A stretch of DNA of 32,000 bases from Zestosphaera tikiterensis (lineage in GTDB: Archaea; Thermoproteota; Thermoprotei_A; Sulfolobales; NBVN01). The notes under the pieces are model-generated. The model had not been told where the DNA came from and ran no database searches. It saw only the letters and a program-made list of their open reading frames with translations. The stretch spans positions 30,001-62,000 of the forward strand of contig NBVN01000006.1 in NCBI GenBank assembly GCA_003056265.1, read 5' to 3'. Position 1 is the first letter of the stretch, and each line of letters opens with the position of its first letter. Position numbers and translations under genes: made by a program. Positions 13,887 through 31,389 of this stretch are shown piece after piece.

Positions 13887-13900
13887 AGCTAAGCACCTAC

Positions 13901-15136: not shown

Positions 15137-15145
15137 TTTATAAAA
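15137..15145 (+). promoter_or_regulatory. TATA-like box for lysW
   Basis: tttataaaa lies about 40-48 nt upstream of ATG 15185. GAGGTG sits directly before the start codon. Confidence 0.35.
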
Positions 15146-15184
15146 TCGTCGTCGTTCACCTTATCTATGAAGTGCTGTGAGGTG

Positions 15185-15361: not shown

Positions 15362-15385
15362 CGGAGGTGCGCTTCTATTTCTAAG

Positions 15386-16243
15386 GTGGGGATTTCCTAC
15401 GAAGTCCTTAGGTGGGAGGAGAAGGTTCTTATAGAGGCTGTGAGGAAGGTAGGGCTTGAGGTAGTGCCGTTACATCTACATAACGTAAAGCTCTTCACAG
15501 ACCCTAGCAAAAGAGAGCTGGAGGAAGGCTTAGGCGGGGTTGAACTGATTTTACAGAGGGCTATAAGCCATGCTATAGCGTTGAATTCCACCCTCGTTTT
15601 TGAATCTATGGGTGTTAGGGTAGTGAATAACTCCACGTCATTAGCTGTTGCGACGAATAAGCTATGGACTTTAAAAAAGCTTGTGGAGAGCGGCATAAGA
15701 GTTCCGAATACAGCCGTAGCGTTCAGCGATGAAGCAAGCTTTAAATGCGCTGAACTCCTTAAATATCCAGTAGTCGTAAAACCCATCGACGGGAGTTGGG
15801 GTAGGTTAATAGCTCTCGCGAGAGATGAGGAAGAACTTAGGGCAGTTTTAGAGCATAGGAGCTATATCCCAAGCCCTACTATGAAGGTTTACATGATTCA
15901 GGAATTCGTTAAGAAACCTGGTAGGGACGTTAGAGTGCTTGTCGTCGGCGATGAGGTAGTGGCGGCAATCTATAGAGTGAGTAACCACTGGATTACGAAC
16001 GCCGCTAGAGGGGGGAATGCGCTACCTGCTAAAGTCGATGAGGAGATGAAGGAAATCGCGTTAAAAGTTGCTGAAGTTGTTAATGGTAAGGTATTAGGTA
16101 TAGATATCTTTGAAGATCCTGAAAGGGGTTATTTAGTTAATGAGGTTAACGCCGTACCGGAGTTTAAAAATGCTGCGGCTGCGACGGGTATAGCAATTCA
16201 TTTAAAGATTGCTGAATACCTGAAGTCTCAAGTGAGGGAGTGA
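15386..16243 (+). CDS. lysX: LysW-alpha-aminoadipate/glutamate ligase (RimK/ATP-grasp)
   Basis: ATP-grasp features: PVVVKPIDGSWGR, MIQEFVKKPGRDVRVLVVG, NEVNAVPEF. Positioned directly after lysW. Confidence 0.85.
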   Translation: MGISYEVLRWEEKVLIEAVRKVGLEVVPLHLHNVKLFTDPSKRELEEGLGGVELILQRAISHAIALNSTLVFESMGVRVVNNSTSLAVATNKLWTLKKLVESGIRVPNTAVAFSDEASFKCAELLKYPVVVKPIDGSWGRLIALARDEEELRAVLEHRSYIPSPTMKVYMIQEFVKKPGRDVRVLVVGDEVVAAIYRVSNHWITNAARGGNALPAKVDEEMKEIALKVAEVVNGKVLGIDIFEDPERGYLVNEVNAVPEFKNAAAATGIAIHLKIAEYLKSQVRE

Positions 16244-17403
16244 CTACGTTAAATTACCTCATGCTTTACGAGGATAGAGGGATTGAATTAGAGTACGCTG
16301 AAGCTCAGTATGTTTGGGACTCCAGCGGGAGGAAGTACTTAGACATGCATACAGGTCATGGCGTGGCTTTTCTAGGGCATAGAAACCCTCACATACTTAA
16401 GTCGTTGAAGAACCAGTTGGATAAGTTAATGGTGTCGTCAACCTCTTTTAGAGTAAGGGTTAGGGATGAGATGCTTGAAGTGTTAAGTAAGGTCGTCCCA
16501 AATAGGTACGCGTATGTATACCTACTAAACAGCGGTAGCGAAGCTGTGGAATTCGCGCTTAAGGTAGCTAGAATATTTACAAACCGGAAGAAGGTAATAT
16601 ACTTTACGAATTCCTTTCATGGAAGGACCTTCGGCGCGTTATCAGTGACCTACAACCAAAGATATAGGAAGGGCTTCGAACCTTTACTGCCTGAGACGGT
16701 TGCGGTGAAGTTTAACGACGTTGATGGAGTTGTGAAGTCTGTGGATGAGTTGACAGCTGCCGTCATACTTGAGCTAATACAGGGTGAGGGAGGGGTTAAC
16801 GTAGCTACGAAGGAATTCGTGGATGAGGTTAGGAGGAGGACTGCTGAGGTAGGGGCTTTAATGATCGTGGATGAGGTGCAGACGGGTTTTGGAAGGACGG
16901 GTAGTGTCTGGGCTTTTCAACAATATGGTGTTTACCCAGACGTTTTAATAGCTGGGAAAGCTATAGGTGGGGGATTTCCTGTTAGTGCGGTTTTCCTGCC
17001 GTTGGATGTGGGTATTAAGCTAGAGTCTGGAATTCATGGAACGACATACGGTGGGAACCCTATGGCCTGCGCTGCTGTTAAAGCTGCTACTGAAGTCTTA
17101 ATATCTGATGATGTTCCGTTAAAGGCTCGTGAGAAGGGTGAGAAACTCCTTAAGTTACTTAAGGATAGGTTGAAAGACGTTAAGATCGTTAGGGAGGTTC
17201 GTGGCGTTGGTTTAATGGTTGGCGTTGAGTTAAGGTTTGAGCCTTCTAAAGCCTTAAAGGATCTGCAGAATAAGGGTGTGTTGGCTTTAAAGGCTGGGGC
17301 AACCGTTCTTAGGTTGTTACCGCCTTACCTCATCACATATGAAGACATAGATTATGCGGTGAACTCCATTGGGGAATCGCTCTCTAAACAACTTACTAGC
17401 TGA
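16240..17403 (+). CDS. lysJ: Class III aminotransferase (LysJ/ArgD)
   Basis: NSGSEAVE, DEVQTGFGRTG and IAGKAIGGGFP (PLP lysine). 4-nt overlap with lysX. Confidence 0.85.
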   Translation: MTTLNYLMLYEDRGIELEYAEAQYVWDSSGRKYLDMHTGHGVAFLGHRNPHILKSLKNQLDKLMVSSTSFRVRVRDEMLEVLSKVVPNRYAYVYLLNSGSEAVEFALKVARIFTNRKKVIYFTNSFHGRTFGALSVTYNQRYRKGFEPLLPETVAVKFNDVDGVVKSVDELTAAVILELIQGEGGVNVATKEFVDEVRRRTAEVGALMIVDEVQTGFGRTGSVWAFQQYGVYPDVLIAGKAIGGGFPVSAVFLPLDVGIKLESGIHGTTYGGNPMACAAVKAATEVLISDDVPLKAREKGEKLLKLLKDRLKDVKIVREVRGVGLMVGVELRFEPSKALKDLQNKGVLALKAGATVLRLLPPYLITYEDIDYAVNSIGESLSKQLTS

Positions 17404-18463
17404 TTTCGTCGTAGACTTGCTGAAAGCTTACAGCCCTACATATAGCGAGGGAAAGGCTGTTGAGGTTCTTAAAAGCTACGCCGTTAGTTTAGGGTATGAT
17501 GAGGTATTAGTTGATGAAGTCGGTAACTTAATAGCCTCGTACGGTGGTGGCCCTAAGAAAGTAGCCCTTATAGGGCATATTGACACAATACCTGGAGAGC
17601 TTCCCATAGTTTTTGACGGGGTTAACGTAAGAGGTAGAGGGGCTGTTGACGCGAAAGGGCCTTTAGCCTCTTTCTTCGTTGGTGCTTCGCTTGCTAAAGA
17701 CTTAATTAACAAACGTGACGTTACGGTGTACTCCATAGCTGTTGTTGGTGAGGAAGGCAATAGTAGAGGAATTAAAAACTTAGTTAGGAAGGGCTTTAGA
17801 GCTGACGGCGTTGTAATAGCTGAGCCAAGCAATTACAACATCGTAGTAGGTTATAGAGGTAGTGTAAAAGTTAAAATAATCTGTAGAGGTGGGGGAGGCC
17901 ATACATCATCTCCATCAAACGGAGACTCCGCATGCGATAAGTTAATGAGTGTGTTGTTGAAGCTTAAGTCCGTGTATAACGTTTATAAAGCAACGGCGAC
18001 TTCCGTTTCGTTGACTTACATGAGGTGTGGTGAGGAAAACGCGAATGTTTACCCGAGGTATGGCGAGCTTAATCTCGATATTAGGGTTTCAGTAGATGAT
18101 GTTGTGGATAACGTTTTAAACGAGTTGAAGGGGTTAGTCACTACATATTTATGCGATTTCCACGTGCTTAGCTCTGTAAACCCAGTTAAAGTATCGATAG
18201 CATCTAATGATGTCGTGAAGGCTTTAACTAGGGCTGTATATGAGCAAGGTATGAAGCCTAAATTTGTCTATAAGTTAGGCACCAGCGATATGAATCTAGC
18301 ATATCCAACCATATCAACGAACGTAGCGGCCTTCGGCCCTGGACATTCGGAACTATCGCATTCAGACCTTGAGGAAATCTCCATAGACGAGCTAGTAACC
18401 GGTGCGAACATCTATAAGGGCTTTATAGAGAAGTTCTCGAAACTCCATAGAAATATTAAGTAA
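17369..18463 (+). CDS. lysK: [LysW]-lysine/ornithine hydrolase (M20 family; LysK/ArgE)
   Basis: GHIDTIPG, GRGAVDAKG and VGEEGNSRG are M20 metal-binding motifs. The start is uncertain: TTG 17369 overlaps lysJ by 35 nt, and TTG 17417 is an alternative. Confidence 0.8.
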   Translation: MGNRSLNNLLADFVVDLLKAYSPTYSEGKAVEVLKSYAVSLGYDEVLVDEVGNLIASYGGGPKKVALIGHIDTIPGELPIVFDGVNVRGRGAVDAKGPLASFFVGASLAKDLINKRDVTVYSIAVVGEEGNSRGIKNLVRKGFRADGVVIAEPSNYNIVVGYRGSVKVKIICRGGGGHTSSPSNGDSACDKLMSVLLKLKSVYNVYKATATSVSLTYMRCGEENANVYPRYGELNLDIRVSVDDVVDNVLNELKGLVTTYLCDFHVLSSVNPVKVSIASNDVVKALTRAVYEQGMKPKFVYKLGTSDMNLAYPTISTNVAAFGPGHSELSHSDLEEISIDELVTGANIYKGFIEKFSKLHRNIK

Positions 18464-18479: not shown

Positions 18480-19115
18480 TTAACTCGTGATTAATCGCGT
18501 TAGCTCAAGTAACTTATCGTATACGTTTTTCTCTTTAGCTACTTCCTCCAAGTAGTTTAAGTCGATTTTATCTATCCAACCGGCTAACAGCCATAGAGCT
18601 TTATCCCTATCTTCAGTAGCGTTCCAGAACTTCCAACCTGATAGGTAAGAAACTATTAGATCTTCCAACGGGTCTAGATAAGCTTTCATACCCTCAATTA
18701 AGATCGTTGTTGGTGGTTTCTTCCTAGAGTATGTTGTCGACACTAAATCTATTGATTTTAGAGTTAACGTTTCGTAAGTTGGTAGGTAACCTCTGCCTAA
18801 CCTTTCTGAGAAGCTTTCAAGGAATTTCTCAACTACTTCATCAGCTTTCACACCTTCAACTATTACATCCACATCCATAGTTCTATATACGCGGGCTGTA
18901 TAGACTTCAACGGCGAAACCTCCTGTGATTACTATCCTTCCTAAACCCTCCTTCTCTAAAGCTTCATTAAGCCACGCAATGAAAAACAAATACCTCTTGG
19001 TTTCGTCTTGGATTGATTTAAGCTTAGGTAGTATGGAGGTTTTAAATACATTACTTAATTTCTCGACGAACTCAACAATGCTTAAATCCTTAAAACCCTC
19101 CTCTCCCTCGACCAT
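18480..19115 (-). CDS. Nucleotidyltransferase-fold protein (AbiEii/DUF6036-like minimal NTase), candidate toxin
   Basis: ITGGFAVEVYTARVYRTMDVDVIV fits the pol-beta NTase pattern G[GS]-x(n)-DxD. 211 aa with a helical C-terminal half. Confidence 0.55.
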   Translation of the reverse strand: MVEGEEGFKDLSIVEFVEKLSNVFKTSILPKLKSIQDETKRYLFFIAWLNEALEKEGLGRIVITGGFAVEVYTARVYRTMDVDVIVEGVKADEVVEKFLESFSERLGRGYLPTYETLTLKSIDLVSTTYSRKKPPTTILIEGMKAYLDPLEDLIVSYLSGWKFWNATEDRDKALWLLAGWIDKIDLNYLEEVAKEKNVYDKLLELTRLITS

Positions 19116-19282
19116 TCAACAACACCTAAATAACTCGGTATAAGTTCCTTAACTAGTGAAGCCAGCTTTAAAGACTCGCTTAAATCCCTACGCGTTGTTC
19201 TATACCTACCTCTGCTTAAATACACGCTCTTGTACGCCCTTCTAAACCTCTCAACGTCTAATGACGTTTCATAAATAAACAT
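19082..19282 (-). CDS. Small basic protein upstream of the NTase, candidate antitoxin/regulator
   Basis: 66 aa, Arg-rich. It overlaps the NTase start by 34 nt. TATA-like gctttaaagat (minus strand, 19308-19318) lies about 30 nt upstream of its ATG. Confidence 0.4.
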   Translation of the reverse strand: MFIYETSLDVERFRRAYKSVYLSRGRYRTTRRDLSESLKLASLVKELIPSYLGVVEWSRERRVLRI

Positions 19283-19372: not shown

Positions 19373-19550
19373 GCCCTACTTCCTATCCTATTGGCTGACG
19401 GCCCCTGTTGTTTTTAACAGGGGTTCTCCCCCTAGGGCTTGCATTACTTCTCTGAAGCCCCTCACCGGGAGTGCATCATCTATCAGTTCCCGCCGTCAGC
19501 TCCGGGAAGGTGTGGGTCTCATCCCAAGCTACGGTTGCCCACACCCAACA
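19373..19550. ncRNA. GC-rich structured RNA candidate, class unknown, strand unresolved
   Basis: Nested helices: 19393-19401 with 19493-19501 (ggctgacgg / ccgtcagct); 19402-19409 with 19416-19423 (cccctgtt / aacagggg); 19426-19430 with 19467-19471; 19435-19440 with 19455-19460 (gggctt / aagccc); 19509-19516 with 19538-19545 (ggtgtggg / cccacacc). The region is non-coding, visibly GC-rich against AT-rich flanks, and has TATA-like boxes on both sides. Confidence 0.5.
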
Positions 19551-19580
19551 CCAAAACATTAAACAAGAAAAACTTAAAAA

Positions 19581-19626
19581 CATTCACCCCGCCTTAAAAG
19601 GCAGAGCCTCAAACAGATGGTGAATG
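19581..19626. repeat. Hairpin enclosing a ccgccttaaaaggc motif related to the element termini
   Basis: cattcacc (19581-19588) pairs with ggtgaatg (19619-19626). The enclosed ccgccttaaaaggc (19589-19602) matches ccgcctttaaaggc at 3614-3627 in 13 of 14 positions. Confidence 0.4.
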
Positions 19627-19702
19627 GTAACGATGTAGACTAAGGTGTTTTACGTGCTTCGATTTAATAGCTTCTAAAGAGAAGTGGTTTTTAGGGTTTC
19701 TT

Positions 19703-20509
19703 ATGCGTGTAGTGAGGGTAGGTTATTTAATAAGCGGGTTAGTGTCTTTAGCTTTAATACTCTACATCCTTAACTTAATTTACCCGTACTATCAAACCCC
19801 TACGGAGGTGGTGTTAGTTACGTATGACGTTATTTACTTACCGCTACCTAAGAAAGTAAGTAACGTTTCTGTTGAGGAGGCGATTCTTTGGAGGAGGAGT
19901 GTTAGGGACTACGCTAAAGACCCGATAAGGCTTGAGGACCTATCCATGATTTTATGGGCTACTTATGGGGTTACTGAACCTACGTGGGGTTTTAGAGCAA
20001 CTCCAAGTGCCGGCGCTACATACCCGCTTGAGATTTACCTTGTTGTAGGTGAGGAAGGGGTTTTAATTGATGGGAATGCATACTTAGTTGCTGGGGTTTA
20101 TAAGTATGATGGGAGGAAACATCTGCTTAGGTTAGTTAAGCAAGGTGATTTTAGGGAGGAACTCTACGTAGCTGCGATTAAGCAGGAATGGGTTAGAAAC
20201 GCGCCGGTAAGTATAGTTATCTGCGCGGTCTTCGAAAGAACTACCTCAGTATACGGGGTTAGGGGGGAGGTTAGGTACGTACCGATGGAGGTTGGCCACG
20301 CAGGTCAAAACATATACTTAATGTCTACCGCGCTTGGTTACGGAGCGGTGGTTGTAGGGGCTTTCATAGATGAAGACGTATCTAAAGTAATCAACGCAGG
20401 CGTTAATGAAGTCCCTATGTACATAGTACCTATTGGAGTTCCTAAAACCCCCTACAGAACCACCTTCAAAGATATAGAGAACTACATAATTAAAGCGAGA
20501 GGTGGTTGA
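19703..20509 (+). CDS. SagB/ThcOx-type nitroreductase-fold dehydrogenase with N-terminal membrane anchor
   Basis: RRSVRDY, PSAGATYPLEIY, GVYKYDG and MEVGHAGQNIYL are SagB-type/nitroreductase motifs. One N-terminal TM helix (LISGLVSLALILYILNLI). Confidence 0.7.
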   Translation: MRVVRVGYLISGLVSLALILYILNLIYPYYQTPTEVVLVTYDVIYLPLPKKVSNVSVEEAILWRRSVRDYAKDPIRLEDLSMILWATYGVTEPTWGFRATPSAGATYPLEIYLVVGEEGVLIDGNAYLVAGVYKYDGRKHLLRLVKQGDFREELYVAAIKQEWVRNAPVSIVICAVFERTTSVYGVRGEVRYVPMEVGHAGQNIYLMSTALGYGAVVVGAFIDEDVSKVINAGVNEVPMYIVPIGVPKTPYRTTFKDIENYIIKARGG

Positions 20510-21199: not shown

Positions 21200-21925
21200 T
21201 TAGATTTTTGTGTATATCTCCACACCTAATTTTTTAGATGCCTCGATCGCTTTCTCTTCAGCATATGGTGTCACTATGATTAGTCTTTCAGGTTCTCTTC
21301 CTGTTTTCTCCTTATATAGTTCTGCCTTCCTCTTGAATTGATATACGTCTGACGCTCTAACATGTGATGATACTTCAATTAATGTAAGTTTTCCATCCTT
21401 AATCGCTATATCTACTTCAACTTCGCTTGGGTAACCAAACACCACGCCTCTCTCGTCATACGTTACCCATTTTTCAACTTTAAGCCCTAACTCCTTCTCC
21501 AATACTCCTCTTAAGCCTTCTCTAAACGCTTCCTCAGCCATCAACCCCCACCTAGCACCTAAAGCAGATATGTGTCTATTAACAAGCTCAAACCCTTTAT
21601 TCATGTCTTTTCTAAGTTCTATGAGTTCTTCCTCATGTCGGTCGAGTCTTTTAAGGACTTCTTTTATCACTTCCTCATGTCTGTCAAGCCTTTTGAGAAT
21701 TTCCTGTAATACTTCCTCATGGTGGTCGAACCTCTTAAGCATTTCTTTTATTACTTCTTCATGACTATCAAGTCTCTTGAGGATTTCCTCTATCACTTCC
21801 TCGTGCTTATCAAGTCTTTTAAGGATTTCTTCTAAACCTATTAAACCAGCTACAGCATATCTAAACTCCTCATCCTCCTTCAAAAGCTTCAATATCTTAG
21901 ACTTAAGCTCCGCAACCTCCATCAC
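21200..21925 (-). CDS. Coiled-coil repeat protein with C-terminal DUF3782 / PD-(D/E)XK-like domain
   Basis: The N-terminus has five 14-aa repeats. The C-terminal LGARWGLMAEEAFREGL...VEVDIAIKDGKLTLIEVSSHV...ERLIIVTPY resembles the restriction-endonuclease-like DUF3782 family, recalled from memory. Confidence 0.55.
   Translation of the reverse strand: MMEVAELKSKILKLLKEDEEFRYAVAGLIGLEEILKRLDKHEEVIEEILKRLDSHEEVIKEMLKRFDHHEEVLQEILKRLDRHEEVIKEVLKRLDRHEEELIELRKDMNKGFELVNRHISALGARWGLMAEEAFREGLRGVLEKELGLKVEKWVTYDERGVVFGYPSEVEVDIAIKDGKLTLIEVSSHVRASDVYQFKRKAELYKEKTGREPERLIIVTPYAEEKAIEASKKLGVEIYTKI
21623..21832 (-). repeat. Five tandem 42-bp coding repeats (14-aa units)
   Basis: The units are EEILKRLDKHEEVI / EEILKRLDSHEEVI / KEMLKRFDHHEEVL / QEILKRLDRHEEVI / KEVLKRLDRHEEEL. 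On the plus strand each unit has the form ta..acttc.tc.tg......a..ct.tt.ag.a.ttc.... Confidence 0.85.
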
Positions 21926-22146
21926 TTAACATCTCTATCTAATTACGTAATTATAAAAGGAAATATAAATCGCCTTCGTTTAATATGCTCTTACAATCAA
22001 TTGTAGTAGACGTAGCAGGTAGTTAACATCTGTGAAGACCTATTATGGTAAGATTTTATAAGTTATTTGTTAAGGGTATTTGGAAGTAGTGCTTGATATT
22101 TAGGTTTTTACTGCCTAAAATTTATTAAGTATGTTGTTCTTAGGTT

Positions 22147-22920
22147 ATGGGTGGTGTTGTGAAGTTGTCTAGGCTTAGATGGTGTGTGTTACTTCAGCTT
22201 GCTAAGGCTTGGAGGTTTGGCTTAAGTGTATCTATATCTCGTGTGATTAAAGTGTTTAACTTAAATTCTTCGCTGGTATATGGGTTTCTTCGTGAGCTTG
22301 AAGAAGATGGTTTAGCTGAAAGAACTCAGCGTGGATGGTGGGCTTTAAGTAACACTCGTAGGGCGAGGGTTCTTGCTGAATATATTCTGGAGTCGGTTAA
22401 TGATGGAATACATGATTATTGGGTTAAGCACGTTCCGGAGGTTTACTACTATATTGCTGAGCCTCCTAGTGTAGAATGGCTTGGTTACCCTAGTGAAGCG
22501 CTTGTGATAGTTGATGAACGTCTTAAGAATGGATTAAAACCTCCTAGCGGATATAGAGTTATATATACTGATATGAGGGGGCGTAGATGGAGGTATGAAT
22601 GGAGTTTAGGATATTCAAGAGGGTTACCTGAGCAAAGCATAGCAGATCTTTTAAGCTATGATTCCTCATATCCTGTAGAGCAGTATATACTATCCAACAT
22701 AAGTCGGGTAGACCTCGATGAAGTAGCTAAGAAAGCTACTGCGAAAGGGCTTAAAAGACTTTCAACGTTCTTAGCTTTCCTTAGGCTAGCTACGGGTAAG
22801 CTGTTACCTACAGGCTTTAACTACCTAACATTACTGGATGAGGGGGTACTTAACGAAAAACTAAGTGAGTATACGATGTTAATATTTGCGAACAACGTAG
22901 CTGAGGAGAGGAGGTTATAG
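22147..22920 (+). CDS. wHTH protein, AbiEi-like antitoxin/regulator candidate
   Basis: The N-terminal winged-helix-like segment is ISRVIKVFNLNSSLVYGFLRELEEDGLAERT. The C-terminal part with GLPEQSIADLLSYD resembles the AbiEi C-domain. The stop lies 3 nt before the next start. Confidence 0.5.
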   Translation: MGGVVKLSRLRWCVLLQLAKAWRFGLSVSISRVIKVFNLNSSLVYGFLRELEEDGLAERTQRGWWALSNTRRARVLAEYILESVNDGIHDYWVKHVPEVYYYIAEPPSVEWLGYPSEALVIVDERLKNGLKPPSGYRVIYTDMRGRRWRYEWSLGYSRGLPEQSIADLLSYDSSYPVEQYILSNISRVDLDEVAKKATAKGLKRLSTFLAFLRLATGKLLPTGFNYLTLLDEGVLNEKLSEYTMLIFANNVAEERRL

Positions 22921-22923
22921 AGC

Positions 22924-23988
22924 TTGAGCGATGCTTCCTACAGTGAAGGAGGTGATGAAGGTAACTTAGATAAGCTACTGGAGGAAACCCGTTTAAGGCT
23001 TAAGACATTAGTACCTGATTACTCGCAACTACCTATTATTACTCGTAAACTACCTGGAGTTGAATACGGCTTAAAGAAGTGGGAACTTAACAATGTTGAA
23101 AGAGGTTTAGAGAGAGTATGGCATATAATGAGGTTATTACGTCTTCTCTCCAGGTACTTTGGTGAGAAGCTATTCTTCGGCGGCGGCTCAATTTTAAACT
23201 ATATATACATGGTTAAATATCGTGAGCCGCCTAGACTTACATTCGTTCTCGACTCAGCTTGGTATAGGGAGGTGAAGTCTAAGAGGGTTATACTAAAAGA
23301 GATGGCGGGATTTAATAAGTGGTTAGCTGAGAACGGCGCTATCCTAGAGGTGCCTACATCCACCTCGAAGAAGGTAACGCTACTCTTAGTTGAATACGAT
23401 GTCGAGAAAGACTTCTTCCCAGAGCTTCTCTCACTACGTATGCCCGTTATAACTAGGTTTGACGGTAGGCCCTTCCATGAATTTCTTAATATACGCGACT
23501 ACAACGTCATAAGGATGCTTCGAAAGGTATTCAACGAAGTCCTCGGGGTTGAGGATCCGCGAATAGACTACGTAAGGTTTGAGGTTTCATTAAACCCAGC
23601 GGGTATGCAGAGGGAGGAGGTGATGTTGGAAGACTTATTTGGTTTAAGTATTAAAACATGGATCACTTCTCTTGAATATCAGTTAGCATCTAAGATAACT
23701 TATAAAGTTGGTAGGGAATTCGGGGCGGCTCTAGAGTATAATCTTCATGACATCCTTAAAGCGGTTTTAGACCTTAGGCTACTTAAGTACGTAGACTCCA
23801 GTGAGGTTAAGAAGTATGTTGAAAACGTATCATACAGCATAGTGGAACACAACCTGAAAAGCCTTCTAAAACCTGAGGGAAGGAAGTTATGGGACGTAAA
23901 CTATCACTACACACTCATTAGAAGGAAGTATACCTTAGAGCAGCTAGTAGGGGAAGTTGAAGCACTTCTAGAGAATGTGTTAAGATAA
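22924..23988 (+). CDS. AbiEii/AbiGii-family nucleotidyltransferase-like protein with a degenerate DxD motif
   Basis: LFFGGGSILNYIYMVKYREPPRLTFVLDS aligns to the family core fkGGTaL...RfSeDlDf, with the first Asp replaced by Val. The later LEYQLASKI...LHDILKAVLDL resembles the conserved C-terminal helix region. Confidence 0.55.
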   Translation: MSDASYSEGGDEGNLDKLLEETRLRLKTLVPDYSQLPIITRKLPGVEYGLKKWELNNVERGLERVWHIMRLLRLLSRYFGEKLFFGGGSILNYIYMVKYREPPRLTFVLDSAWYREVKSKRVILKEMAGFNKWLAENGAILEVPTSTSKKVTLLLVEYDVEKDFFPELLSLRMPVITRFDGRPFHEFLNIRDYNVIRMLRKVFNEVLGVEDPRIDYVRFEVSLNPAGMQREEVMLEDLFGLSIKTWITSLEYQLASKITYKVGREFGAALEYNLHDILKAVLDLRLLKYVDSSEVKKYVENVSYSIVEHNLKSLLKPEGRKLWDVNYHYTLIRRKYTLEQLVGEVEALLENVLR

Positions 23989-24101: not shown

Positions 24102-24407
24102 CTAGATTTTCAGTAGTTCATGTTCTTTTATGAATCTTTTATACCAACCCTCGTAGAGCTTCTTCGTTACTATATGTAGCTCTATAGGTGCGTCTATACT
24201 TCGATATACTCTCGTCATGATCTCGTACTTCTTATCTGTTTTCTCGGTAATTACTAGGATATCTATATCGCTTGCGACCGTGTAGTTCCCGCGGACAACC
24301 GAGCCGAAGACGTAGACTTCAGCTTGCGGATCAAATTCCGTAACTATTTTCTTCACTTCCTCGGCAATTACCCTGTAGTTCTCGAGTGTTTTAAGCTCCT
24401 TCGGCAA
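24102..24407 (-). CDS. mntA: Minimal nucleotidyltransferase (MNT) of a HEPN-MNT pair
   Basis: FGSVVRGNYTVASDIDILV is the classic GS-x(n)-DxD motif. 101 aa, TTG start. Confidence 0.8.
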   Translation of the reverse strand: MPKELKTLENYRVIAEEVKKIVTEFDPQAEVYVFGSVVRGNYTVASDIDILVITEKTDKKYEIMTRVYRSIDAPIELHIVTKKLYEGWYKRFIKEHELLKI

Positions 24408-24904: not shown

Positions 24905-25459
24905 TTGTGTATTAGGCTTCTCGCACCCTATGGTATTATCTTAGATATCGGTGTAGGCACGGGGATCCTCACTAGCGGCTTATCTAATACAATAGTTGGT
25001 GTAGATCCCGCTGAAAACCCGCTGAAGATCGCCAGCAATCGTGGTATTCTACCTGTGAATGCTTACGGCGAAGAATTGCCGTTTAGAGATGAAGCTTTCG
25101 ACACCGTGCTTATTATAGTAACTCTATGCTTTACAGATAAACCACTTAACATATTGTTTGAAGCATATAGGGTTTGTAAAAGAGGCGGTAAGCTAATAGT
25201 GTGTGTTGTTCCACGTGAAAGTGCTTGGGGAAGATACTATTTTTTAAGGAAGATACGCAGTGAAAGCGTATTCTATGAGTATGCAAGGTTCTATAGCGTG
25301 AAAGAAGTAGAAGATATGATGCGTTATGTAGGGCTTAAAATAAAGCGATACTGCTCGACACTGACTTACGATCCATCTATGCCACCTTATATCGAGTACC
25401 CTAAGCTGCAGAAAGACGAGGAAGCCGGATTCATATGTGTGGAAGCTATAAAGGAATGA
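24905..25459 (+). CDS. Class I SAM-dependent methyltransferase (Methyltransf_11-like), start uncertain or possibly 5'-damaged
   Basis: Motif I is ILDIGVGTGILT, with post-I GVDP and motif-II-like DTVLIIVTL. The frame is open from 24800 and encodes a typical YDAWY N-terminal segment, but it has no ATG/GTG/TTG before 24905. Confidence 0.6.
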   Translation: MCIRLLAPYGIILDIGVGTGILTSGLSNTIVGVDPAENPLKIASNRGILPVNAYGEELPFRDEAFDTVLIIVTLCFTDKPLNILFEAYRVCKRGGKLIVCVVPRESAWGRYYFLRKIRSESVFYEYARFYSVKEVEDMMRYVGLKIKRYCSTLTYDPSMPPYIEYPKLQKDEEAGFICVEAIKE

Positions 25460-26142
25460 AACGATCTTAGGCTACCTCCATCAATAACGATAACTATCCC
25501 AGTTATGAAGCTTGCCTCTTCTGAAGCTAGGAACACTATTGTATTTGCTATATCTGATGGCTTACCTAACCTACCTAAGGGCATGGCCTCAATTATAACT
25601 TCAAGTGTTTGCGATCCGATAGGGTCTGGAGCTATCACGTCAACCGTTATGTTGAAGGGTGTTAACTCTAAAGCTTTCGTAAACCCTATTATTCCTGCTC
25701 TATTTACTGTGAATAATGCGTTGGTATTGGAAAGCCCACAAGCCCTTGCTATCGACAATACGTTGATTATCCTGCTGTATCTTGCTTAACTATCGTAGGT
25801 TCTGTAAACCTAGTGAATAGAAACGTGCCTTTTTAAGTTTACGTTGATTACCTCATCTCAATCCTCCCCACTCATTTCTAAGAATGGCTTAAATGGGTAT
25901 ATGCCTGCGTTATTAACAAGCATGTCTACCTTAACGTTGTCCCTCTTCGACAGATCTCTGACGACGTCAAGAGCTCTAACGTTAAATCTCTCCGCTTCCT
26001 GAGATACTTCGTGAACTTTATCCATTAAATCCACCAGAACTACGTCAGCTCATTCACTTGCTAACTCGAGAGATATCTCCCTACCTATACTCATAGCAGT
26101 GCCGGTTATTAAAGCCGCTCTACCTTTAAATTTAGAACTCAA
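25387..26142 (-). pseudogene. Short-chain dehydrogenase/reductase (SDR) pseudogene
   Basis: A single frame from TTG 26142 reads KGRAALITGTAMSIGREI...NNAGIY...IVIDGG. It has in-frame stops at 26052-26050 (TGA), 25860-25858 (TGA), 25812-25810 (TAG) and 25788-25786 (TAA). The catalytic YxxxK reads FTVNR. Confidence 0.75.
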
Positions 26143-26312: not shown

Positions 26313-28589
26313 CTATGTGGTGAGTTCCTTAACGTATGACTGCAGGCCTCTATTCTCTATCCTATATATTTTGTCGGCTATGTCCTTAACTTTCTCCTCA
26401 TGTGTTACTATGATTATTTGTTTTAGGTTGCTCGCTACCTGCTTAAGTATTTCGAAGAGTTTCTCTCTGTTCTCCTCGTCTAGGTAGACCGTAGGTTCGT
26501 CAAGTATTATAGTTGATACTTTACCCATGAGCATCTCAGCTAGGGCTAGTCTTAAAGCTATCGCTATGCTTACCTTCTCACCTCCTGAGGCGTTCTTAAC
26601 GTTTAGCTCTTCATCGTTTACATAGTAGCTTATGTTATATTCATCATCTATTTTTAATCGCTCTATACCTAGCTTAAACCCCTTAAGTATTTCGTTAGCT
26701 CGCCTCTCAAGTTCCTCCCTAGCTTTAACAGTTAACTTCTTAGCGATTACGCCGTCCCTACCTAAGTAAGCCTCGCTAAACTCTCTTAAAGTCTTAACGA
26801 CTTTCTTCCTCTGCTCTATATCCTCAAGAGCTTTCCTTAACTCCTTAATCTCCTCAGCGATTCTAACCTCCCTATCGCATATTTCCTCAAGCCTCCCCTT
26901 AATAAGCCCAACCCTCCTATTCAAGTCGTTTAACTGATTCCTCAAAGCGTTTACGTGATTAACTACCCTACTTAAGGAGTTGTTTATAGCTGACCTCACT
27001 TTAATTATATCGGATCTACTTACGTTTAAGCTTAACGTTACGCCAGTAACTGAAGCGTAGGAGTTGAACTCATTAAGTAAGCCCTCCACATCCAACTCTA
27101 ATTCAGTAACGTCGCCTAACTCAGCCTTAAGGTTTTCTAACTCAATTGAAACCTTAGTGAATTCTTCCTTAAGTTTAAGGAGTTGATCTACGCATTCGTT
27201 AAGCTCCCTACTTAAGCTTAACTCGCCGCAGAGCTTTACAGCCTCGGAAGCCAGCCTTTCCTCCTCCTCACGAGCCCTCCTTAACTCCTCACTTAACGTC
27301 TCTTCAGCCGTAAGTAACCTCCTAAACTCCCTCTCCATAGCTTCAACTTGCTTAACTGTTTTCAATAAAGCATCCATTTCTCTCTTTAGATCCGCCAGCC
27401 TCACTTTAAGGTTTTCAGACTCTTCGATAAGGTGTTGACGTATTGACGTAGGGTCTTTAATTAATGACCCGCATATAGGGCATTTACTTGATTCACTAAC
27501 CTTATTTAAGTACACGTTATATAGGTCTATTAAGGACTCCACCCTAGCTATGTCGTTGGTGAGGGCCTCACCCCTAGAGTTTAAACCCTCCTTTAACTCC
27601 TCTAAGTCTTGCTGGCTGGATACCCGCCTACCGAAGAGTTCCGAAGCTTTTGAAGTTAACGAGTTTAAATCGCTTCTTAACTTATTAATTCGTGCGGTTA
27701 CGTCACTAACTGATTTACGTGCCCTAACGAGGTTTTCTGGACTCCACGCACTTAAAACCTTAAGTTCATCATATCTTGATTTAAGCTCTTTAAACCTACG
27801 CATTATTAAAGCCTGTTCAAACATATCTAAAGCTTTAACGGCGTTGCTTAAGTCGCTTCTCTCACGCTCGGCTTTATCTATCCTCTCCTCAAGCTCTTTC
27901 AACTCTTTAGATAGCGCTTCATATTCTTTCTGAAGCTTCACAACCTCCTCCTTAACCCTCCTCTCCTCCTCCTGAAGTTTAGAAAGCCTTACCCTCCTAT
28001 CGCTTTCCTCAGCCGTTAAAACCTTCTCTTTAGAGTTTAACGCAGTCTTAACTACTTCGAGGGCGTTGATTAGGTTTTCCAAACCGAATAGGCTTAATAT
28101 CTCTTCACGCCTCTCCGAAGGCTTTAAATCTATTATCTTAGTTAACTCGTCTTGAAGGCTTAATATCGTGTTCCTAACTAAATCAACAACGAGTTCATGC
28201 CTACTAACCCCTAACAAACTCGATATCTCTTTAATCACTGGGTTGAAATTCACAGCTTTTAAAACCTCCCCACCCTCCTTAATCTCGTAAAGCCTTACTG
28301 AATCGCTACCGTCAAGCGATACCTCCCTCACAACTTTAAAACTACGCCCACCAACCTCGAAGACAACCGCTATAGAGCCTTTCCTATACCCCCTATGTAG
28401 TAAGGACTCCTTCCTACCCTCCCTAACGCTGTACTTCGGCGTTGGGAATAACGCGACGAAAAGCCCTTCAACAACCGATGACTTACCGGCTCCGTTAGGA
28501 CCTACTAAAGCGTTCACGCCCTCCGTGAACTCCAGCTCTGAATTTCTATGAGATAGGAAGTTATTTAGGTATACCTTCTTAATAATCAC
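26313..28589 (-). CDS. rad50: Rad50 DNA double-strand break repair ATPase
   Basis: Walker A GPNGAGKSS, long coiled coil with zinc hook CPICG, signature SGGEKVSIAIALRLA, Walker B TIILDEPTVYLD, H-loop IIVTHEE. Confidence 0.9.
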   Translation of the reverse strand: MIIKKVYLNNFLSHRNSELEFTEGVNALVGPNGAGKSSVVEGLFVALFPTPKYSVREGRKESLLHRGYRKGSIAVVFEVGGRSFKVVREVSLDGSDSVRLYEIKEGGEVLKAVNFNPVIKEISSLLGVSRHELVVDLVRNTILSLQDELTKIIDLKPSERREEILSLFGLENLINALEVVKTALNSKEKVLTAEESDRRVRLSKLQEEERRVKEEVVKLQKEYEALSKELKELEERIDKAERERSDLSNAVKALDMFEQALIMRRFKELKSRYDELKVLSAWSPENLVRARKSVSDVTARINKLRSDLNSLTSKASELFGRRVSSQQDLEELKEGLNSRGEALTNDIARVESLIDLYNVYLNKVSESSKCPICGSLIKDPTSIRQHLIEESENLKVRLADLKREMDALLKTVKQVEAMEREFRRLLTAEETLSEELRRAREEEERLASEAVKLCGELSLSRELNECVDQLLKLKEEFTKVSIELENLKAELGDVTELELDVEGLLNEFNSYASVTGVTLSLNVSRSDIIKVRSAINNSLSRVVNHVNALRNQLNDLNRRVGLIKGRLEEICDREVRIAEEIKELRKALEDIEQRKKVVKTLREFSEAYLGRDGVIAKKLTVKAREELERRANEILKGFKLGIERLKIDDEYNISYYVNDEELNVKNASGGEKVSIAIALRLALAEMLMGKVSTIILDEPTVYLDEENREKLFEILKQVASNLKQIIIVTHEEKVKDIADKIYRIENRGLQSYVKELTT

Positions 28590-29761
28590 TTCCTCCTCAC
28601 CAACTCCTCAAGTTTTTTATAGAGGCTTCTATCCTTAACCAACAGCTCCAGAATTAACTCCACGTCTTTATCGCTGGTTGAACTAACTAAAGCCTGAACC
28701 AACTGTGTGATGCCCTCATCTTTAAACGTTTCTTTAATGACCGCATCTAAACTAACTGTAGATACGCCCTCACCACGGCCCTCCCCAACCTCGAGTTCCC
28801 CACCTTCAGCTGTTTTAGTCAGTATTCGAAAGTCGGAGATTAACCCCCTCTCAACAGCCCTACTTAACTCCGTTCTAAGCTTCTCAGCTTCAAACCTGCT
28901 TAATTTAGATGTGAGCTCCACGTACAGGATGGGCTTCTTAACTAGGTTGTGACTTCCTAACCTACCTAAGCTTTGCTGAAGTTCGTTAACGTTTTTAATC
29001 ACTAACTTCGCAAACCTTCTAAACCTCTCTAAACGTATGTGTTGAAGTACCGCTTCAGAACCACTTAAATCAACTAAAACAACGTATCTCTCATCCCTAT
29101 ATTCTTGAATGTCTTGAGCTTCTGTAGAGCCTGGGTATACGATAGGCGGGTTTCTAATGTTTGGATATACGTAGTTTATGTGGTAATCCCCTAAAGCCAC
29201 GTAGTTATACTCTTTAACAGGTAGTTGAGTTATTGAGATGTGATAGCTGGGTAAGCCCAACTCCTGAAGCAGTATATGCGCTATGAGGATCTTCTTACGT
29301 GCTTCAGGGGGTTTAACCTTACTTAAGACTTCCTTAGCCATAGAGCCTTCGAAGTAGGGGATGCCGGTAACCCCTAAGTCCCCTGAGTTAAGCTTAACCA
29401 CTTCGTTTTTTACGTCGCCTGGAGACTCACCTAACGAGTGAGCAAGCCCTAACTCCTTAAGTACGTGTATTGGTGAGGCTCCAGCACGTTTAGCCATGTC
29501 ATGCTGACCCGCCACAACAATGAACTTTATGTTCCGTTCTCTCAACTTGTTTAAAGCCTTAACTGCGTATACGTAGGGTCTTGGAGGAGGTCTGAAGTCG
29601 TCGAATAGATCTCCTGAATGTATTACGGCGTCTACATGTTCTTTAATCGCTATATCTATAGCTTCATCGAAGACTTCGTAGAAGTCTTTCTCCCTCTCGA
29701 AACTTCCAGTAAAGGGTTTTGAAGAGCCTAAATGCGTGTCTGAAACGTGAAGTAGTAACAT
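28586..29761 (-). CDS. mre11: Mre11 nuclease
   Basis: Phosphoesterase motifs HVSDTHLG, HSGDLFD, VVAGQHD (Gln where Asn is usual), IAHILL and LGDYH. 4-nt overlap with rad50. Confidence 0.9.
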   Translation of the reverse strand: MLLLHVSDTHLGSSKPFTGSFEREKDFYEVFDEAIDIAIKEHVDAVIHSGDLFDDFRPPPRPYVYAVKALNKLRERNIKFIVVAGQHDMAKRAGASPIHVLKELGLAHSLGESPGDVKNEVVKLNSGDLGVTGIPYFEGSMAKEVLSKVKPPEARKKILIAHILLQELGLPSYHISITQLPVKEYNYVALGDYHINYVYPNIRNPPIVYPGSTEAQDIQEYRDERYVVLVDLSGSEAVLQHIRLERFRRFAKLVIKNVNELQQSLGRLGSHNLVKKPILYVELTSKLSRFEAEKLRTELSRAVERGLISDFRILTKTAEGGELEVGEGRGEGVSTVSLDAVIKETFKDEGITQLVQALVSSTSDKDVELILELLVKDRSLYKKLEELVRRK

Positions 29762-29778
29762 CCTTAAACCACCTTATC

Positions 29779-31389
29779 TTAAAGCTCCGTTAAGGAGCTC
29801 CTCTCCTTAGCTTTAGAGGCTTCGGAATTACGCTCTATTAACTTGTCCCTCCATACACTCACTACTTTAGGTGAGGCACCTAACTTCTTACCTTCGTGTT
29901 TATCTATGTGAGCGTAAACAGTGAACCTCCCCACCCACTCACCAACTAAGATCGCGTGTCCCGGCGGGAAAGAAGGCATTAAGTTGGAGTACTCCTCGCT
30001 TAACACGTCTGAAAACTCAACTACTTTATTTCTATCCATGGTTTGAACTAACTTGAAGAAGGCGAAGTTCTGAACCTGCGATACTATCGCTGGGTCTAAA
30101 GTCCTCGGTCTCTGACTAACTATAGCTAACATAGCCCCGAATTTCCTGCCCTCCCTAACGAACCTCTGGAGGGCTTCCTTAGATTCCGTATGTCTATTCT
30201 CACTTAAGAATATGTGGGCCTCCTCAACAACCAGGAGTGTTGGGATCGCCCTCCTCTCCTTCAAAGACCAGAGCAGGTCTTCAGCGATTACCTTAAGCAT
30301 CCAGTCCTGCTCGCTATCCGTTAACTCGGAGACGTCCACATCTATTATCCTCTCAGGCGCTATTAACTCACTAACTTCAGGCATGTCTAGGCTTGTTTTA
30401 TGCCATTCGAAGAAGTCCTCTATCTTATCTATTATGTTATCCCTTAGCTTATCGTCTTTAGGTACGGCTTTAATCACCTCGCCTTTAAGGAGTTCCTCAT
30501 AAGCTTGTATTTCGCTTAAGTCACCACCTACCGCACGTCCAGACGCTTTAGCTAACTCAACCACAGCTTTAGATAGGGGTATCCCCTCCTTCGAAGCCTT
30601 CTCTAAGATCCTACCGTTTAAACTTTTTATCGCGTTCCTCAATATCCTCCTTTGCTTGGTTGCCCCCGGCTCGGAAATTATGAACATCGTAAGCAATCTA
30701 ATAGGGGTTTTAATTAAGTTTATGCTTGCTTCGTAAGACACGACCTCAACCCTACCTGGGTTCTCGCTTTCCAACTTATACTCGCCGTGTGTGTCGAAGA
30801 TCACTACGCTACCGCCTAATCCAGCCACCCTATCCGCTAAGACCGCTATGAAGTTGCTCTTACCTGAGCCCGTAACCCCAGTTACTAAGAGGTGCTTTAC
30901 TAAAGCGTTTACGTTAACCCTAACTTCAATGTCTTCTTCGTGGCCGGCTAGAGAACCCACTCTAATGCTTTCCTCCGGGTCTTGCCTGTAGATCTTGCTG
31001 AGGTGTTGTGGGGTTGCTAAATATACTTTAGTTTCAGGCGGGGGTGGGTACGTAGGTACTGAAGGCCTGTCTTCAGTTATGTCCGCTATGAGTATAGCGT
31101 CCATTACGGACTCCCGCTTAAGTTCTAAAAGCTCTGGAGCTTCAACAACTACTGTGGGGATTGACGTAGGGGGTTTACTCATCACAGGCGTTAAAGACTT
31201 GAATTGAGTTGCGCCTATAAGACCTACTACATCCCTCCTCATGACGTTCTTAGATCTTGGGTCTTTAACCTGGTAGTTTAAGTATACATACGTCCCTACG
31301 GGTAAGGGATACCTAGCCTTAACGCTTATCCTCGTCGGTGAGGACTCCTCACCAACAACGCCTACCTCAGTTAGGTTCTGAACGCTCAT
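29779..31389 (-). CDS. herA: HerA hexameric DNA translocase/helicase
   Basis: N-terminal HAS-barrel-like region, Walker A GVTGSGKSN, Walker B LLVVEEAH, VSQRP region. Sits between nurA and mre11. Confidence 0.9.
   Translation of the reverse strand: MSVQNLTEVGVVGEESSPTRISVKARYPLPVGTYVYLNYQVKDPRSKNVMRRDVVGLIGATQFKSLTPVMSKPPTSIPTVVVEAPELLELKRESVMDAILIADITEDRPSVPTYPPPPETKVYLATPQHLSKIYRQDPEESIRVGSLAGHEEDIEVRVNVNALVKHLLVTGVTGSGKSNFIAVLADRVAGLGGSVVIFDTHGEYKLESENPGRVEVVSYEASINLIKTPIRLLTMFIISEPGATKQRRILRNAIKSLNGRILEKASKEGIPLSKAVVELAKASGRAVGGDLSEIQAYEELLKGEVIKAVPKDDKLRDNIIDKIEDFFEWHKTSLDMPEVSELIAPERIIDVDVSELTDSEQDWMLKVIAEDLLWSLKERRAIPTLLVVEEAHIFLSENRHTESKEALQRFVREGRKFGAMLAIVSQRPRTLDPAIVSQVQNFAFFKLVQTMDRNKVVEFSDVLSEEYSNLMPSFPPGHAILVGEWVGRFTVYAHIDKHEGKKLGASPKVVSVWRDKLIERNSEASKAKERSSLTEL

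Follow-up and report, generated by a model that had tools for sequence, protein, structure and literature searches.

A diverged AbiE/MenAT-like gene pair, probably a toxin–antitoxin module, beside an independent DUF3782/PDDEXK_10 gene in a hyperthermophilic archaeon

The three genes at positions 21200–23988 of the window (the whole 32,000-nucleotide stretch of DNA analyzed here) make up two unrelated units that are neighbors by happenstance in this strain. We consider it probable that genes B and C constitute a bicistronic AbiE/MenAT-type toxin–antitoxin module whose small, strongly diverged clade occurs mostly in hot-spring Thermoproteota, and that the divergently transcribed gene A is independent of them. 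An earlier note had tentatively joined all three genes in a composite defense or addiction module and had set it apart from the described AbiE system; such a composite of a nuclease and a pseudo-toxin does not appear to be real, which makes the finding a modest one, and archaeal AbiE had already been described (PMC3985639, PMC12988326). What the B–C pair would add is an AbiE/MenAT-type module in hyperthermophilic Thermoproteota in a form invisible to the Pfam, NCBIfam and PADLOC models, and surveys reporting low defense and toxin–antitoxin content in Thermoproteota (PMC12988326) probably undercount such families.

Gene layout and the independent gene A

All three open reading frames called in the earlier note were confirmed at their coordinates. 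Gene A (21200–21925, minus strand, GTG start, 241 aa) is separated by an AT-rich divergent spacer of 221 bp (21926–22146; 28.5% GC vs. approximately 40% for the window), again as the note had it, from gene B (22147–22920, plus strand, ATG start, 257 aa), which is followed by gene C (22924–23988, plus strand, TTG start, 354 aa). The start codon of gene B carries an uncertainty of up to 18 nt, and the annotation of a 99.5%-identical twin contig (L034) gives its product as 251 aa. Only 3 nt separate the stop codon of B (22918–22920) from the start of C, and a GGAGG motif within the 3′ end of B (22910–22914, plus strand), 9 nt before the TTG, is the likely ribosome-binding site for C. The tight coupling of B and C proposed from the sequence is upheld, and the bicistronic arrangement is kept in approximately 24 distinct loci, nearly all of the named ones from Thermoproteota.

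Gene A, which is transcribed independently and does not belong to the B–C module, encodes a typical member of the very large DUF3782/PDDEXK_10 family, a putative nuclease of the PD-(D/E)XK fold. The five-repeat coiled coil and DUF3782-type C-terminus proposed for it are both borne out: a 42-nt tandem repeat of 4.9 copies (21628–21831, minus strand; TRF period 42, 74% matches, score 198) encodes five 14-aa units (LKRLDxHEEVIxEx) of an N-terminal coiled-coil stalk, and DUF3782 (aa 90–166, E = 5e-27, 94.2 bits against a cutoff of 24.4) and PDDEXK_10 (aa 167–236, E = 9e-20, 70.9 bits against a cutoff of 21.2) both exceed the Pfam gathering scores. The PADLOC model C3a181 also matches over the full length (1e-25); Tpen_1359 of Thermofilum pendens, listed as C3a181, belongs to the same family. 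The coiled coils of this family have been discussed previously (Hartmann et al. 2016, PMC4786415), and nothing sets gene A apart from its homologues: like them it has both domains, with an N-terminal cap and a C-terminal domain that are conserved and a repeat stalk that varies in length; repeat number varies even among close homologues (P0121, for example, with 226 aa, is one unit shorter). Across 17 aligned homologues D172 is invariant and E184 is conserved in at least 90%, and the position of the canonical ExK lysine reads E184-V-S186, as in most of these homologues, the clearest exception being P0137 with E-I-K. The invariant K200 could be a migrated lysine of the PD-(D/E)XK triad. A probable promoter of gene A, TTTATATTTCCTTTTATA, lies on the minus strand at 21952–21969, 27–44 nt upstream of the GTG, and a near-identical TTTATTATTTCCTTTTATA is found upstream of an A homologue in locus L037.

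Fold, motifs and promoter of the B–C pair

Gene C is, on structural grounds and through intermediate relatives rather than by a direct profile match, a Pol-beta-fold nucleotidyltransferase of the AbiEii/DUF1814 superfamily, and hence a candidate toxin. No direct match to C was found in Pfam, NCBIfam or PADLOC, and PDB sequence-profile searches returned nothing for B or C; only four of 27 close relatives match PF08843 (best E = 4.9e-4). All 10 of the distant full-length relatives that were scanned from a C profile search, however, exceed the Pfam gathering score for this model, and hhalign of the C family against Pfam-validated AbiEii proteins gives a probability of 100 (E = 9e-44) over 285 columns, aligned from aa 59–62; the preceding N-terminal extension of approximately 58 aa is specific to the clade. 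The AF2 model of C (pLDDT 93) retrieves MenT3/TglT (Rv1045) at Foldseek ranks 1–9 against the PDB (E = 7e-5 to 4e-4, probability 1.0, TM 0.42–0.57) and MenT1 at ranks 10–11. The family is small: 38 clusters were found among 5.8 billion proteins, and an exhaustive profile search through 1.84 billion proteins yielded 56 representatives.

Gene B is a candidate AbiEi-like antitoxin and autorepressor. It is directly upstream of C wherever the fetched DNA covers both genes, and its AF2 model (pLDDT 89) consists of an N-terminal winged helix (aa ~8–82), which matches MarR/ArsR winged helix-turn-helix domains with a Foldseek probability of 1.0, and a C-terminal alpha/beta domain that carries an invariant EQxxADLL motif in the family. 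At full length, Foldseek returns AbiEi (6y8q_A; E = 1.3e-3, probability 0.80, 223 columns, TM ~0.2) followed by Rv2827c (1zel; E = 0.018, 242 columns), both weakly. No significant AbiEi profile match to B was found in Pfam (best E = 0.15), the PADLOC AbiEi model covers just the winged helix at E = 0.021, and no significant sequence similarity to AbiEi was found for the C-terminal domain. Six of 25 B relatives weakly match AbiEi_4 (best E = 8.5e-4) as well as generic families of winged-helix proteins, and a B homologue in locus L038 precedes a Pfam-positive AbiEii gene (hhalign probability 96, E = 2.6e-9). The structure searches and profile searches suggested in the earlier note therefore diverge: the AbiEi/AbiEii-like character of the pair is supported by structure and by intermediates but not by direct profile searches, in which DUF3782 was recovered for A and the AbiEi and AbiEii models failed for the window copies of B and C.

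The consensus of the C family, FGGGS...PPRLTFDLD, satisfies the nucleotidyltransferase motifs I and II (hG[G/S]...R-x3-D-h-D); F85, G86, G87, R104, T106 and D110 do not vary across the family, D108 is kept in at least 90% of its members, and the spacing of R-x-T-x-D-x-D is identical to that of R63/T65/D67/D69 in AbiEii (PMC3985639; bioRxiv 10.64898/2026.01.19.700257). Motif III is present as K257-x6-R264 (K257 nearly invariant, position 264 R or K across the family), and motif IV reads K279-A-V-L-D283 where +DxxD is expected, of which the basic position and the final Asp alone remain; D276, K279, D283 and R285 are invariant. The window copy itself reads RLTFVLD and thus departs from the motif I/II pattern, with a GTT codon (V108; 23245–23247, plus strand) in place of the first catalytic Asp. 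The note's observation of a nucleotidyltransferase without one catalytic Asp is accordingly correct for this copy but does not describe an archaeal trait: 55 of 58 C relatives retain the DxD, and D108V is a single GAT to GTT step specific to this strain, shared with the twin contig (42 differences across 8 kb). Since the substitution falls in the metal-binding DxD, this copy of C is likely a dead or attenuated toxin, which fits the frequent decay of toxin genes; at another locus, C is split by a 1.4-kb insertion.

The B–C promoter carries a conserved 17-bp inverted repeat, TAGG-N8-GCCTA (22101–22117, plus strand; extended form TTTAGG...CCTAAA at 22099–22119), a candidate operator for B that overlaps the BRE position and abuts the TATA box. 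It is invariant and at the same position in eight distinct loci whose B proteins are 46–69% identical and whose flanks have diverged, and 0.38 matches per 32 kb are expected by chance. A TTTATTA(G/A) sequence is conserved 3–4 nt past the repeat in the aligned B–C promoters; in the window the probable TATA box, assigned from the known layout of archaeal promoters, is TTTATTAA (22121–22128, plus strand), and its position 19–26 nt upstream of the B ATG implies a leaderless or near-leaderless mRNA. The palindrome that the note had pointed out in the divergent control region, TACAAT-CA-ATTGTA, does exist at 21992–22005, but as a control element it is rejected in favor of the conserved site: the region has 20 short inverted repeats in all, 0.68 palindromes with 6-nt arms and spacers of up to 4 nt are expected per dinucleotide shuffle of the spacer, and among 38 fetched loci it recurs only in the twin contig.

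We hypothesize that the winged helix of B binds TAGG-N8-GCCTA, such that a B dimer on the repeat would repress its own promoter by occluding TFB/TBP at the abutting TATA box. B would also neutralize C, most likely in the manner of AbiEi or MenA3, in which binding of the toxin leads to autophosphorylation of a Thr; the candidate residue is the conserved T106, two residues before the first catalytic Asp position. Active C, if it works like MenT1/3 and AbiEii, would attach nucleotides to the 3′ ends of tRNAs and so stop translation. The candidate operator offers a testable case of toxin–antitoxin autoregulation by promoter occlusion in archaea, and relatives with an intact toxin would allow the tRNA-nucleotidylation and autophosphorylation model to be tested at high temperature.

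Distribution and alternative readings

A pattern-based scan matched B–C in 14 of 185,579 species genomes, a lower bound, and its neighbors differ at every locus, often including HEPN/MNT pairs, PIN, Mrr or CRISPR-Cas genes; C is disrupted in two loci (L027 and L029). Such patchy spread, varied neighbors and disrupted C are behavior typical of mobile toxin–antitoxin modules. Searches of viral contigs, plasmids and phages found no B–C copy, so it is from the patchy distribution that we infer mobility.

Co-occurrence bears on the composite reading, in which A, B and C form one defense or addiction system with a nuclease-fold effector, a catalytically altered AbiE-like pair and shared divergent control. 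The genes are indeed adjacent and divergent across a 221-bp spacer, the arrangement is retained in the second haplotype, L034, and an earlier listing of candidate type III CRISPR accessory genes includes the A family as a weak entry (C3a181, three occurrences; PMC6546367). Yet an A-family gene adjoins B–C solely in the window and the twin contig; none of the other fetched B–C loci has one, including 16 distinct loci whose upstream flank spans at least 2 kb, and the conserved N-terminus of A is missing from the 491-nt upstream flank of the closest relative, L032 (69–73% identical), where a partial divergent ORF is unrelated to it. Conversely, the three A homologues viewed in context have no AbiE-like neighbor, and the families are of unequal size (at least 1865 clusters for A vs. 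about 30–56 for B and C). The probable promoter motif of A is its own and common to homologues elsewhere, the sole conserved candidate operator sits at the B TATA box, the palindrome pointed out in the note is no more frequent than chance predicts, and the catalytic alteration is particular to this strain. The earlier note had named a lack of enriched co-occurrence, with an adjacency unique to this genome, as a refutation of its module, and among the fetched loci the three families come together only in the window and its twin; the composite reading is largely refuted by the co-occurrence data, and we regard it as highly improbable.

The remaining alternatives concern what B and C do. That they are no toxin–antitoxin or defense pair at all, B being a regulator only and C a nontoxic nucleotidyltransferase acting on a small molecule, RNA or protein, seems to us quite improbable: the pair has the full AbiE/MenAT architecture, with the antitoxin gene first, overlapping or adjacent genes and a promoter inverted repeat (PMC3985639), the phosphoacceptor Thr and catalytic motif are invariant in the family, the distribution is extremely patchy among unrelated and often toxin–antitoxin- or defense-rich neighborhoods, and C has been inactivated twice independently whereas no such loss was seen for B, which suggests a cost of the enzyme. 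In its favor are the extra ~58-aa extension and altered motif IV of C, a B C-terminal domain dissimilar in sequence to AbiEi, the existence of DUF1814 proteins unlinked to antitoxins (PMC3985639) and the lack of copies on viruses or plasmids, and toxicity of the clade is itself a prediction by analogy. We assign a minor probability to the B–C clade being an unrecognized toxin–antitoxin or antiviral family confined to hyperthermophilic archaea and missed by current defense and toxin–antitoxin finders; the extension and altered motif IV of C and the larger B C-terminal domain with its EQxxADLL motif would then reflect a cellular target or a neutralization mechanism other than the tRNA nucleotidylation and antitoxin-induced autophosphorylation of bacterial AbiE/MenAT, and the family would explain part of the apparently low defense prevalence reported for Thermoproteota. 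It is similarly doubtful that the window copy of C is still an active toxin or defense effector, with either E157 or D159 in the invariant EYDxEKD motif, or D110 by itself, sufficing despite V108. The ORF is full length with all remaining conserved residues intact, gene B is kept intact beside it, and the V108 allele persists without further damage in both haplotypes; however, AbiEii loses its toxicity when the corresponding residue is changed (D67A, or even D67E) and in the D67A/D69A double mutant binds far less GTP (PMC3985639), active-site mutants (D82A, E146Q, K189A) were made for the MenT3/TglT crystal entries that C matches best, and Asp is kept at this position in nearly all relatives. 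The preservation of this otherwise intact V108 copy may instead reflect a non-catalytic or residual function.

Comparison with known systems

The AbiE system, known from Streptococcus agalactiae and Lactococcus lactis, was initially reported as a type IV toxin–antitoxin and abortive infection system and has been reclassified as type VII in a 2026 preprint (bioRxiv 10.64898/2026.01.19.700257). Like AbiE, the B–C pair is bicistronic, the gene for a winged-helix candidate antitoxin preceding that for a Pol-beta-fold nucleotidyltransferase of the DUF1814 type (PMC3985639), and its promoter holds an inverted repeat; C shares with AbiEii the GG motif, the R-x-[ST]-x-D-x-D spacing and a K-x6-R motif III, and AbiEi (6y8q) is the top full-length structural match of B. 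The pair differs from AbiE in that the window B and C have no significant direct sequence-profile match, in its host, a hyperthermophilic archaeon, and in its operator, a single 17-bp repeat at an archaeal TATA box rather than two 23-bp repeats around a bacterial −35 element. Compared with AbiEii, C is ~60 aa longer N-terminally, has a longer GG-to-DxD spacing, reads K-A-x-L-D rather than +DxxD at motif IV and, in the window copy, has Val for the first catalytic Asp; B is 257 aa long vs. 195 aa for AbiEi and has a different and larger C-terminal domain.

From the MenAT systems of Mycobacterium tuberculosis the pair is separated by low sequence identity (12–14%), by archaeal rather than actinobacterial hosts and by the N-terminal extension of C, and tRNA modification, unlike for MenT, is for the C clade a prediction by analogy. 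Like MenA3–MenT3 (TakA–TglT, Rv1044–Rv1045), to which MenT3 contributes the best structural match of C in nine PDB entries, and like MenA4–MenT4 (Rv2827c–Rv2826c), in which the GGT...RFSxDxD and DLxDL motifs of distant C relatives align to the sequence of MenT4 (6y56), and MenA4 (1zel) is the second full-length structural match of B, the B–C pair would combine a winged-helix partner with a nucleotidyltransferase whose putative phosphoacceptor, a Ser/Thr in MenT and T106 in C, precedes the first Asp by two residues.

The nucleotidyltransferase gene and its winged-helix partner

Three open reading frames occupy exactly the coordinates claimed for them in the earlier note: A, a nuclease-like gene on the minus strand (21200-21925, 241 aa, GTG start), and, divergent from it on the plus strand, the winged-helix gene B (22147-22920, 257 aa, ATG at 22147) and the nucleotidyltransferase gene C (22924-23988, 354 aa, TTG start). 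The stop codon of B (22918-22920) lies 3 nt before the start of C, and a GGAGG is found 9 nt 5' of the TTG. The description of B and C as an AbiEi/AbiEii-like pair is supported by structure and profile–profile comparison, but not by direct searches of Pfam, NCBIfam and PADLOC, in which C has no match and B no significant one (best TrmB, 0.15; PADLOC AbiEi, 0.021).

In a set of 5.8 billion proteins, the C family accounts for just 38 clusters; none of them carries a Pfam domain, and the named ones belong to Thermoproteota MAGs and one Korarchaeota MAG. An exhaustive search of 1.84 billion representatives with the C-family HMM returned only 56 proteins at E <= 1e-3, and a pattern-based scan placed relatives in at least 14 of 185,579 GTDB species genomes, all Thermoproteota. 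The C- and B-family alignments matched PDB sequences only at the level of noise (designed coiled coils, Thg1, IclR and ArsR; E ~1). The nine best PDB matches of the AlphaFold model (pLDDT 93) are to MenT3/TglT (Rv1045; E 7e-5 to 4e-4, prob 1.0, TM 0.42-0.57), with MenT1 next. Among the most distant full-length matches of the C profile, all 10 proteins scanned pass the gathering score of PF08843 (AbiEii), and hhalign aligns the C family to them with a probability of 100% (E 9e-44, 285 columns), beginning at about residue 60 of C. On the strength of these structural matches and Pfam-positive distant relatives, C is a homologue of the AbiEii/MenT toxins with the same fold and a member of the AbiEii/DUF1814 superfamily.

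Within the C-family alignment, F85, G86, G87, R104, T106 and D110 are invariant and D108 is at least 90% conserved, which gives the signature GG...R-x-T-x-D-x-D, with the same motif spacing as R63/T65/D67/D69 of AbiEii (PMC3985639). The phosphoacceptor of AbiEii is T65, its MenT3 equivalent being S78 (bioRxiv 10.64898/2026.01.19.700257). Motif III is present (K257-x6-R264) and motif IV partly retained (K279-A-V-L-D283), as mapped via an alignment with MenT4; the alignment of the distant AbiEii relatives reached MenT4 in the PDB at E 0.38 only and served for motif mapping alone.

The B family (30 clusters) shares its contigs with the C family, and B stands directly upstream of C wherever the fetched DNA covers both genes; the two are a conserved operon. 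In Foldseek searches with the B model (pLDDT 89), the N-terminal winged helix matches MarR/ArsR-type domains (prob 1.0). The best match over the full length is to the antitoxin AbiEi (6y8q; E 1.3e-3, prob 0.80, 223 columns), and third in the ranking is Rv2827c (1zel; E 0.018, 242 columns), which we take to be the partner of MenT4 (Rv2826c). TM-scores for these matches are ~0.2, and the structural support for AbiEi likeness is therefore weak but specific. Sub-threshold matches to AbiEi_4 occur in 6 of 25 B-family members. At a further locus (L038), a Pfam-positive AbiEii gene (encoding P0081) is preceded by a gene whose 272-aa product is homologous to B in each of its two domains (hhalign prob 96, E 2.6e-9); thus, the same type of partner accompanies recognised AbiEii proteins.

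Loss of one catalytic aspartate and other damage to C-family genes

The earlier note had regarded the loss of a catalytic Asp as a feature of an archaeal version of AbiEii. The window does read RLTFVLD, with a GTT codon at 23245-23247, but DxD is found in 55 of the 58 relatives covering the motif (one has DxY and one DxV), VxD being confined to a single lineage made up of the window and the homologous protein P0001, and this strain-restricted substitution rules out a general archaeal trait. The same GTT occurs in the 99.5%-identical twin contig (L034) despite 42 differences over 8 kb, so this is a genuine strain-specific allele and sequencing error is ruled out. Since D67A, and even D67E, abolishes the toxicity of AbiEii (PMC3985639), the window copy of C is, by analogy, probably inactive or attenuated. 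Window and twin differ at 3 positions in B and 2 in C, too few for an informative selection test.

Independent inactivation of the C-family gene is observed at two other loci, L027 (815-3242) and L029 (737-3389), where a 1.4-kb insertion, which contains an oppositely oriented ORF of 441 aa, interrupts the gene near residue 120. This ORF had been read by eye as TnpB-like, a reading without Pfam support, as the L027 copy has no Pfam match; a separate 171-aa ORF just downstream contains a Cas12f1-like TNB (TnpB) domain. Comparable damage was not seen in B, apart from one possible case, a split B match in L028.

The divergent promoter region and gene A

The spacer between A and B (21926-22146) is AT-rich, as had been described, at 221 bp and 28.5% GC versus ~40% in the window. 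The control element proposed for it, the palindrome TACAAT-CA-ATTGTA, is present at 21992-22005, ~140 bp from the start of B and 67 bp from that of A; however, the AT-rich region has 20 short inverted repeats, this one included, 0.68 palindromes of its class are expected per dinucleotide shuffle, and among the 38 fetched loci it recurs only in the twin. At chance level and absent from all non-twin loci, it was rejected as an operator. The candidate operator of B-C is a 17-bp inverted repeat, TAGG-N8-GCCTA (22101-22117; extended TTTAGG...CCTAAA, 22099-22119), which is conserved: in aligned DNA upstream of B it is invariant, between divergent flanks, in 8 distinct loci with B proteins of only 46-69% identity, and its chance expectation is 0.38 per 32 kb. 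TTTATTA(G/A) follows 3-4 nt after the repeat in the aligned promoters, and the predicted TATA box of B-C lies at 22121-22128. In archaeal promoters, the BRE immediately precedes the TATA box. AbiEi binds to inverted repeats within its own promoter (PMC3985639), and we infer from this parallel that B may autorepress the B-C promoter.

Two further exact matches to the repeat, at 722-738 (minus strand) and 18783-18799 (plus strand, inside a DUF6036 nucleotidyltransferase gene), are probably due to chance; the total of 3 in the window, against 0.38 expected, puts it at a level (at least 3) reached in 2 of 100 shuffles. On the side of A, a perfect 14-bp palindrome, TAATTACGTAATTA (21940-21953), was of borderline significance against shuffled sequence (0.04 expected per shuffle, with such a palindrome in 3.7% of shuffles) and was rejected as an operator, not being conserved upstream of A homologues. 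A has a promoter-like motif of its own, TTTATATTTCCTTTTATA, on the minus strand of 21952-21969, which also occurs with an A homologue in locus L037. With this motif for A and the B-C promoter, the divergent region therefore probably holds two separate promoters ~130 bp apart.

The account of A as a repeat-bearing protein with a DUF3782-type C-terminus is confirmed (Pfam DUF3782, 5e-27; PDDEXK_10, 9e-20), the tandem repeat (21628-21831; 42-nt period, 4.9 copies) encoding five 14-aa units. A is a typical representative of a known, functionally uncharacterised family of at least 1865 clusters at E <= 1e-5, all of which, among the matches listed, have PF12644 and PF07788. Several copies per genome are common, with two on a single chromosome in Infirmifilum sp. 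NZ. Gain and loss of 14-aa (42-nt) units in the stalk gives lengths of 184-382 aa among family members, close homologues included. One homologue, P0121, is 91-98% identical to A (two measures) and one unit shorter. The coiled coils of DUF3782/PDDEXK_10 proteins have been discussed (PMC4786415), and the family has been listed, on 3 occurrences, among weak candidates for type III CRISPR accessory genes (C3a181; PMC6546367).

A had further been proposed to form one composite system with B and C. The twin apart, no A homologue was found in the fetched flanks of other B-C loci, among them 16 distinct loci for which 2 kb or more of upstream DNA was available; in L032, the closest distinct relative, the available 491 nt upstream contain a partial divergent ORF unrelated to A. 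Conversely, no AbiE-like pair lies near A homologues in three contexts (L035, L036, L037), where the neighbours are PaREP1, PIN, HEPN/MNT and restriction-modification genes. The adjacency of A and B-C is therefore unique to this strain, an outcome that the earlier note itself had named as refuting the three-gene cassette. In 3 of 3 of these contexts, a ~117-aa gene with retropepsin-like domains (Asp_protease_2 / gag-asp_proteas), absent from the window, lies 0.6-1.1 kb upstream of the DUF3782/PDDEXK_10 gene (L035 3537-3890; L036 4040-4393; L037 1621-1980), and could be a genuine association of the A family.

Genomic surroundings and relation to known AbiE systems

The window is archaeal chromosomal DNA and includes LysX-type amino-acid biosynthesis genes (13083-18463) and a NurA-HerA-Mre11-Rad50 operon (26313-31994). 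Between these, on the minus strand, the DUF6036 nucleotidyltransferase gene (211 aa; Pfam 2e-5, weak PADLOC AbiEii matches) and an upstream, overlapping 66-aa ORF (together 18480-19282) probably form a second small nucleotidyltransferase toxin-antitoxin-like module. The pair recurs at 19665-20437 of locus L011 (60% and 67% identity), ~9 kb from the B-C pair there; in L001, a gene with a weak DUF6036 match is located 0.7 kb upstream of B. An orphan antitoxin-like gene (24102-24407, minus strand) encodes a solo minimal nucleotidyltransferase of 101 aa (NTP_transf_2, 4.5e-13) with a sub-threshold MntA-type match (29 bits, cutoff 60); no HEPN partner was found on either side. A candidate novel ncRNA (19385-19545, 57% GC), situated in the 420 bp that separate the 66-aa ORF from a nitroreductase gene, folds at -68.9 kcal/mol on the plus strand (z = -4.5; -3.0 on the minus strand). 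The element is not a tRNA and matches nothing in Rfam even at E <= 1, and the window as a whole gave no match in Rfam and tRNA scans. Of the 42 differences between window and twin, 17 fall in the 3' flank of the element (19537-19603). A 123-aa adh_short_C2 fragment (25387-25758, minus strand), overlapping the 3' end of a methyltransferase gene (24905-25459, plus strand), looks like a truncated short-chain dehydrogenase pseudogene.

The distribution of B-C is patchy and its neighbourhoods vary, frequently with an abundance of toxin-antitoxin or defence genes (HEPN/MNT, Mrr, type I-A CRISPR-Cas), a pattern that fits a selfish or defensive module; searches of IMG/VR viral contigs, PLSDB plasmids and GenBank phages gave no relatives of C. 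We hypothesize that an active C would nucleotidylate tRNA 3' ends and so arrest translation, that B would neutralise it by inducing autophosphorylation at T106, and that a B dimer at the BRE position would block TFB/TBP and repress the promoter, with the window copy of C being presumably inactive. The main value of B-C is that current models fail to detect it. AbiE is already known in archaea (PMC3985639, PMC12988326), and B-C therefore adds a very divergent member to a known kind of system.
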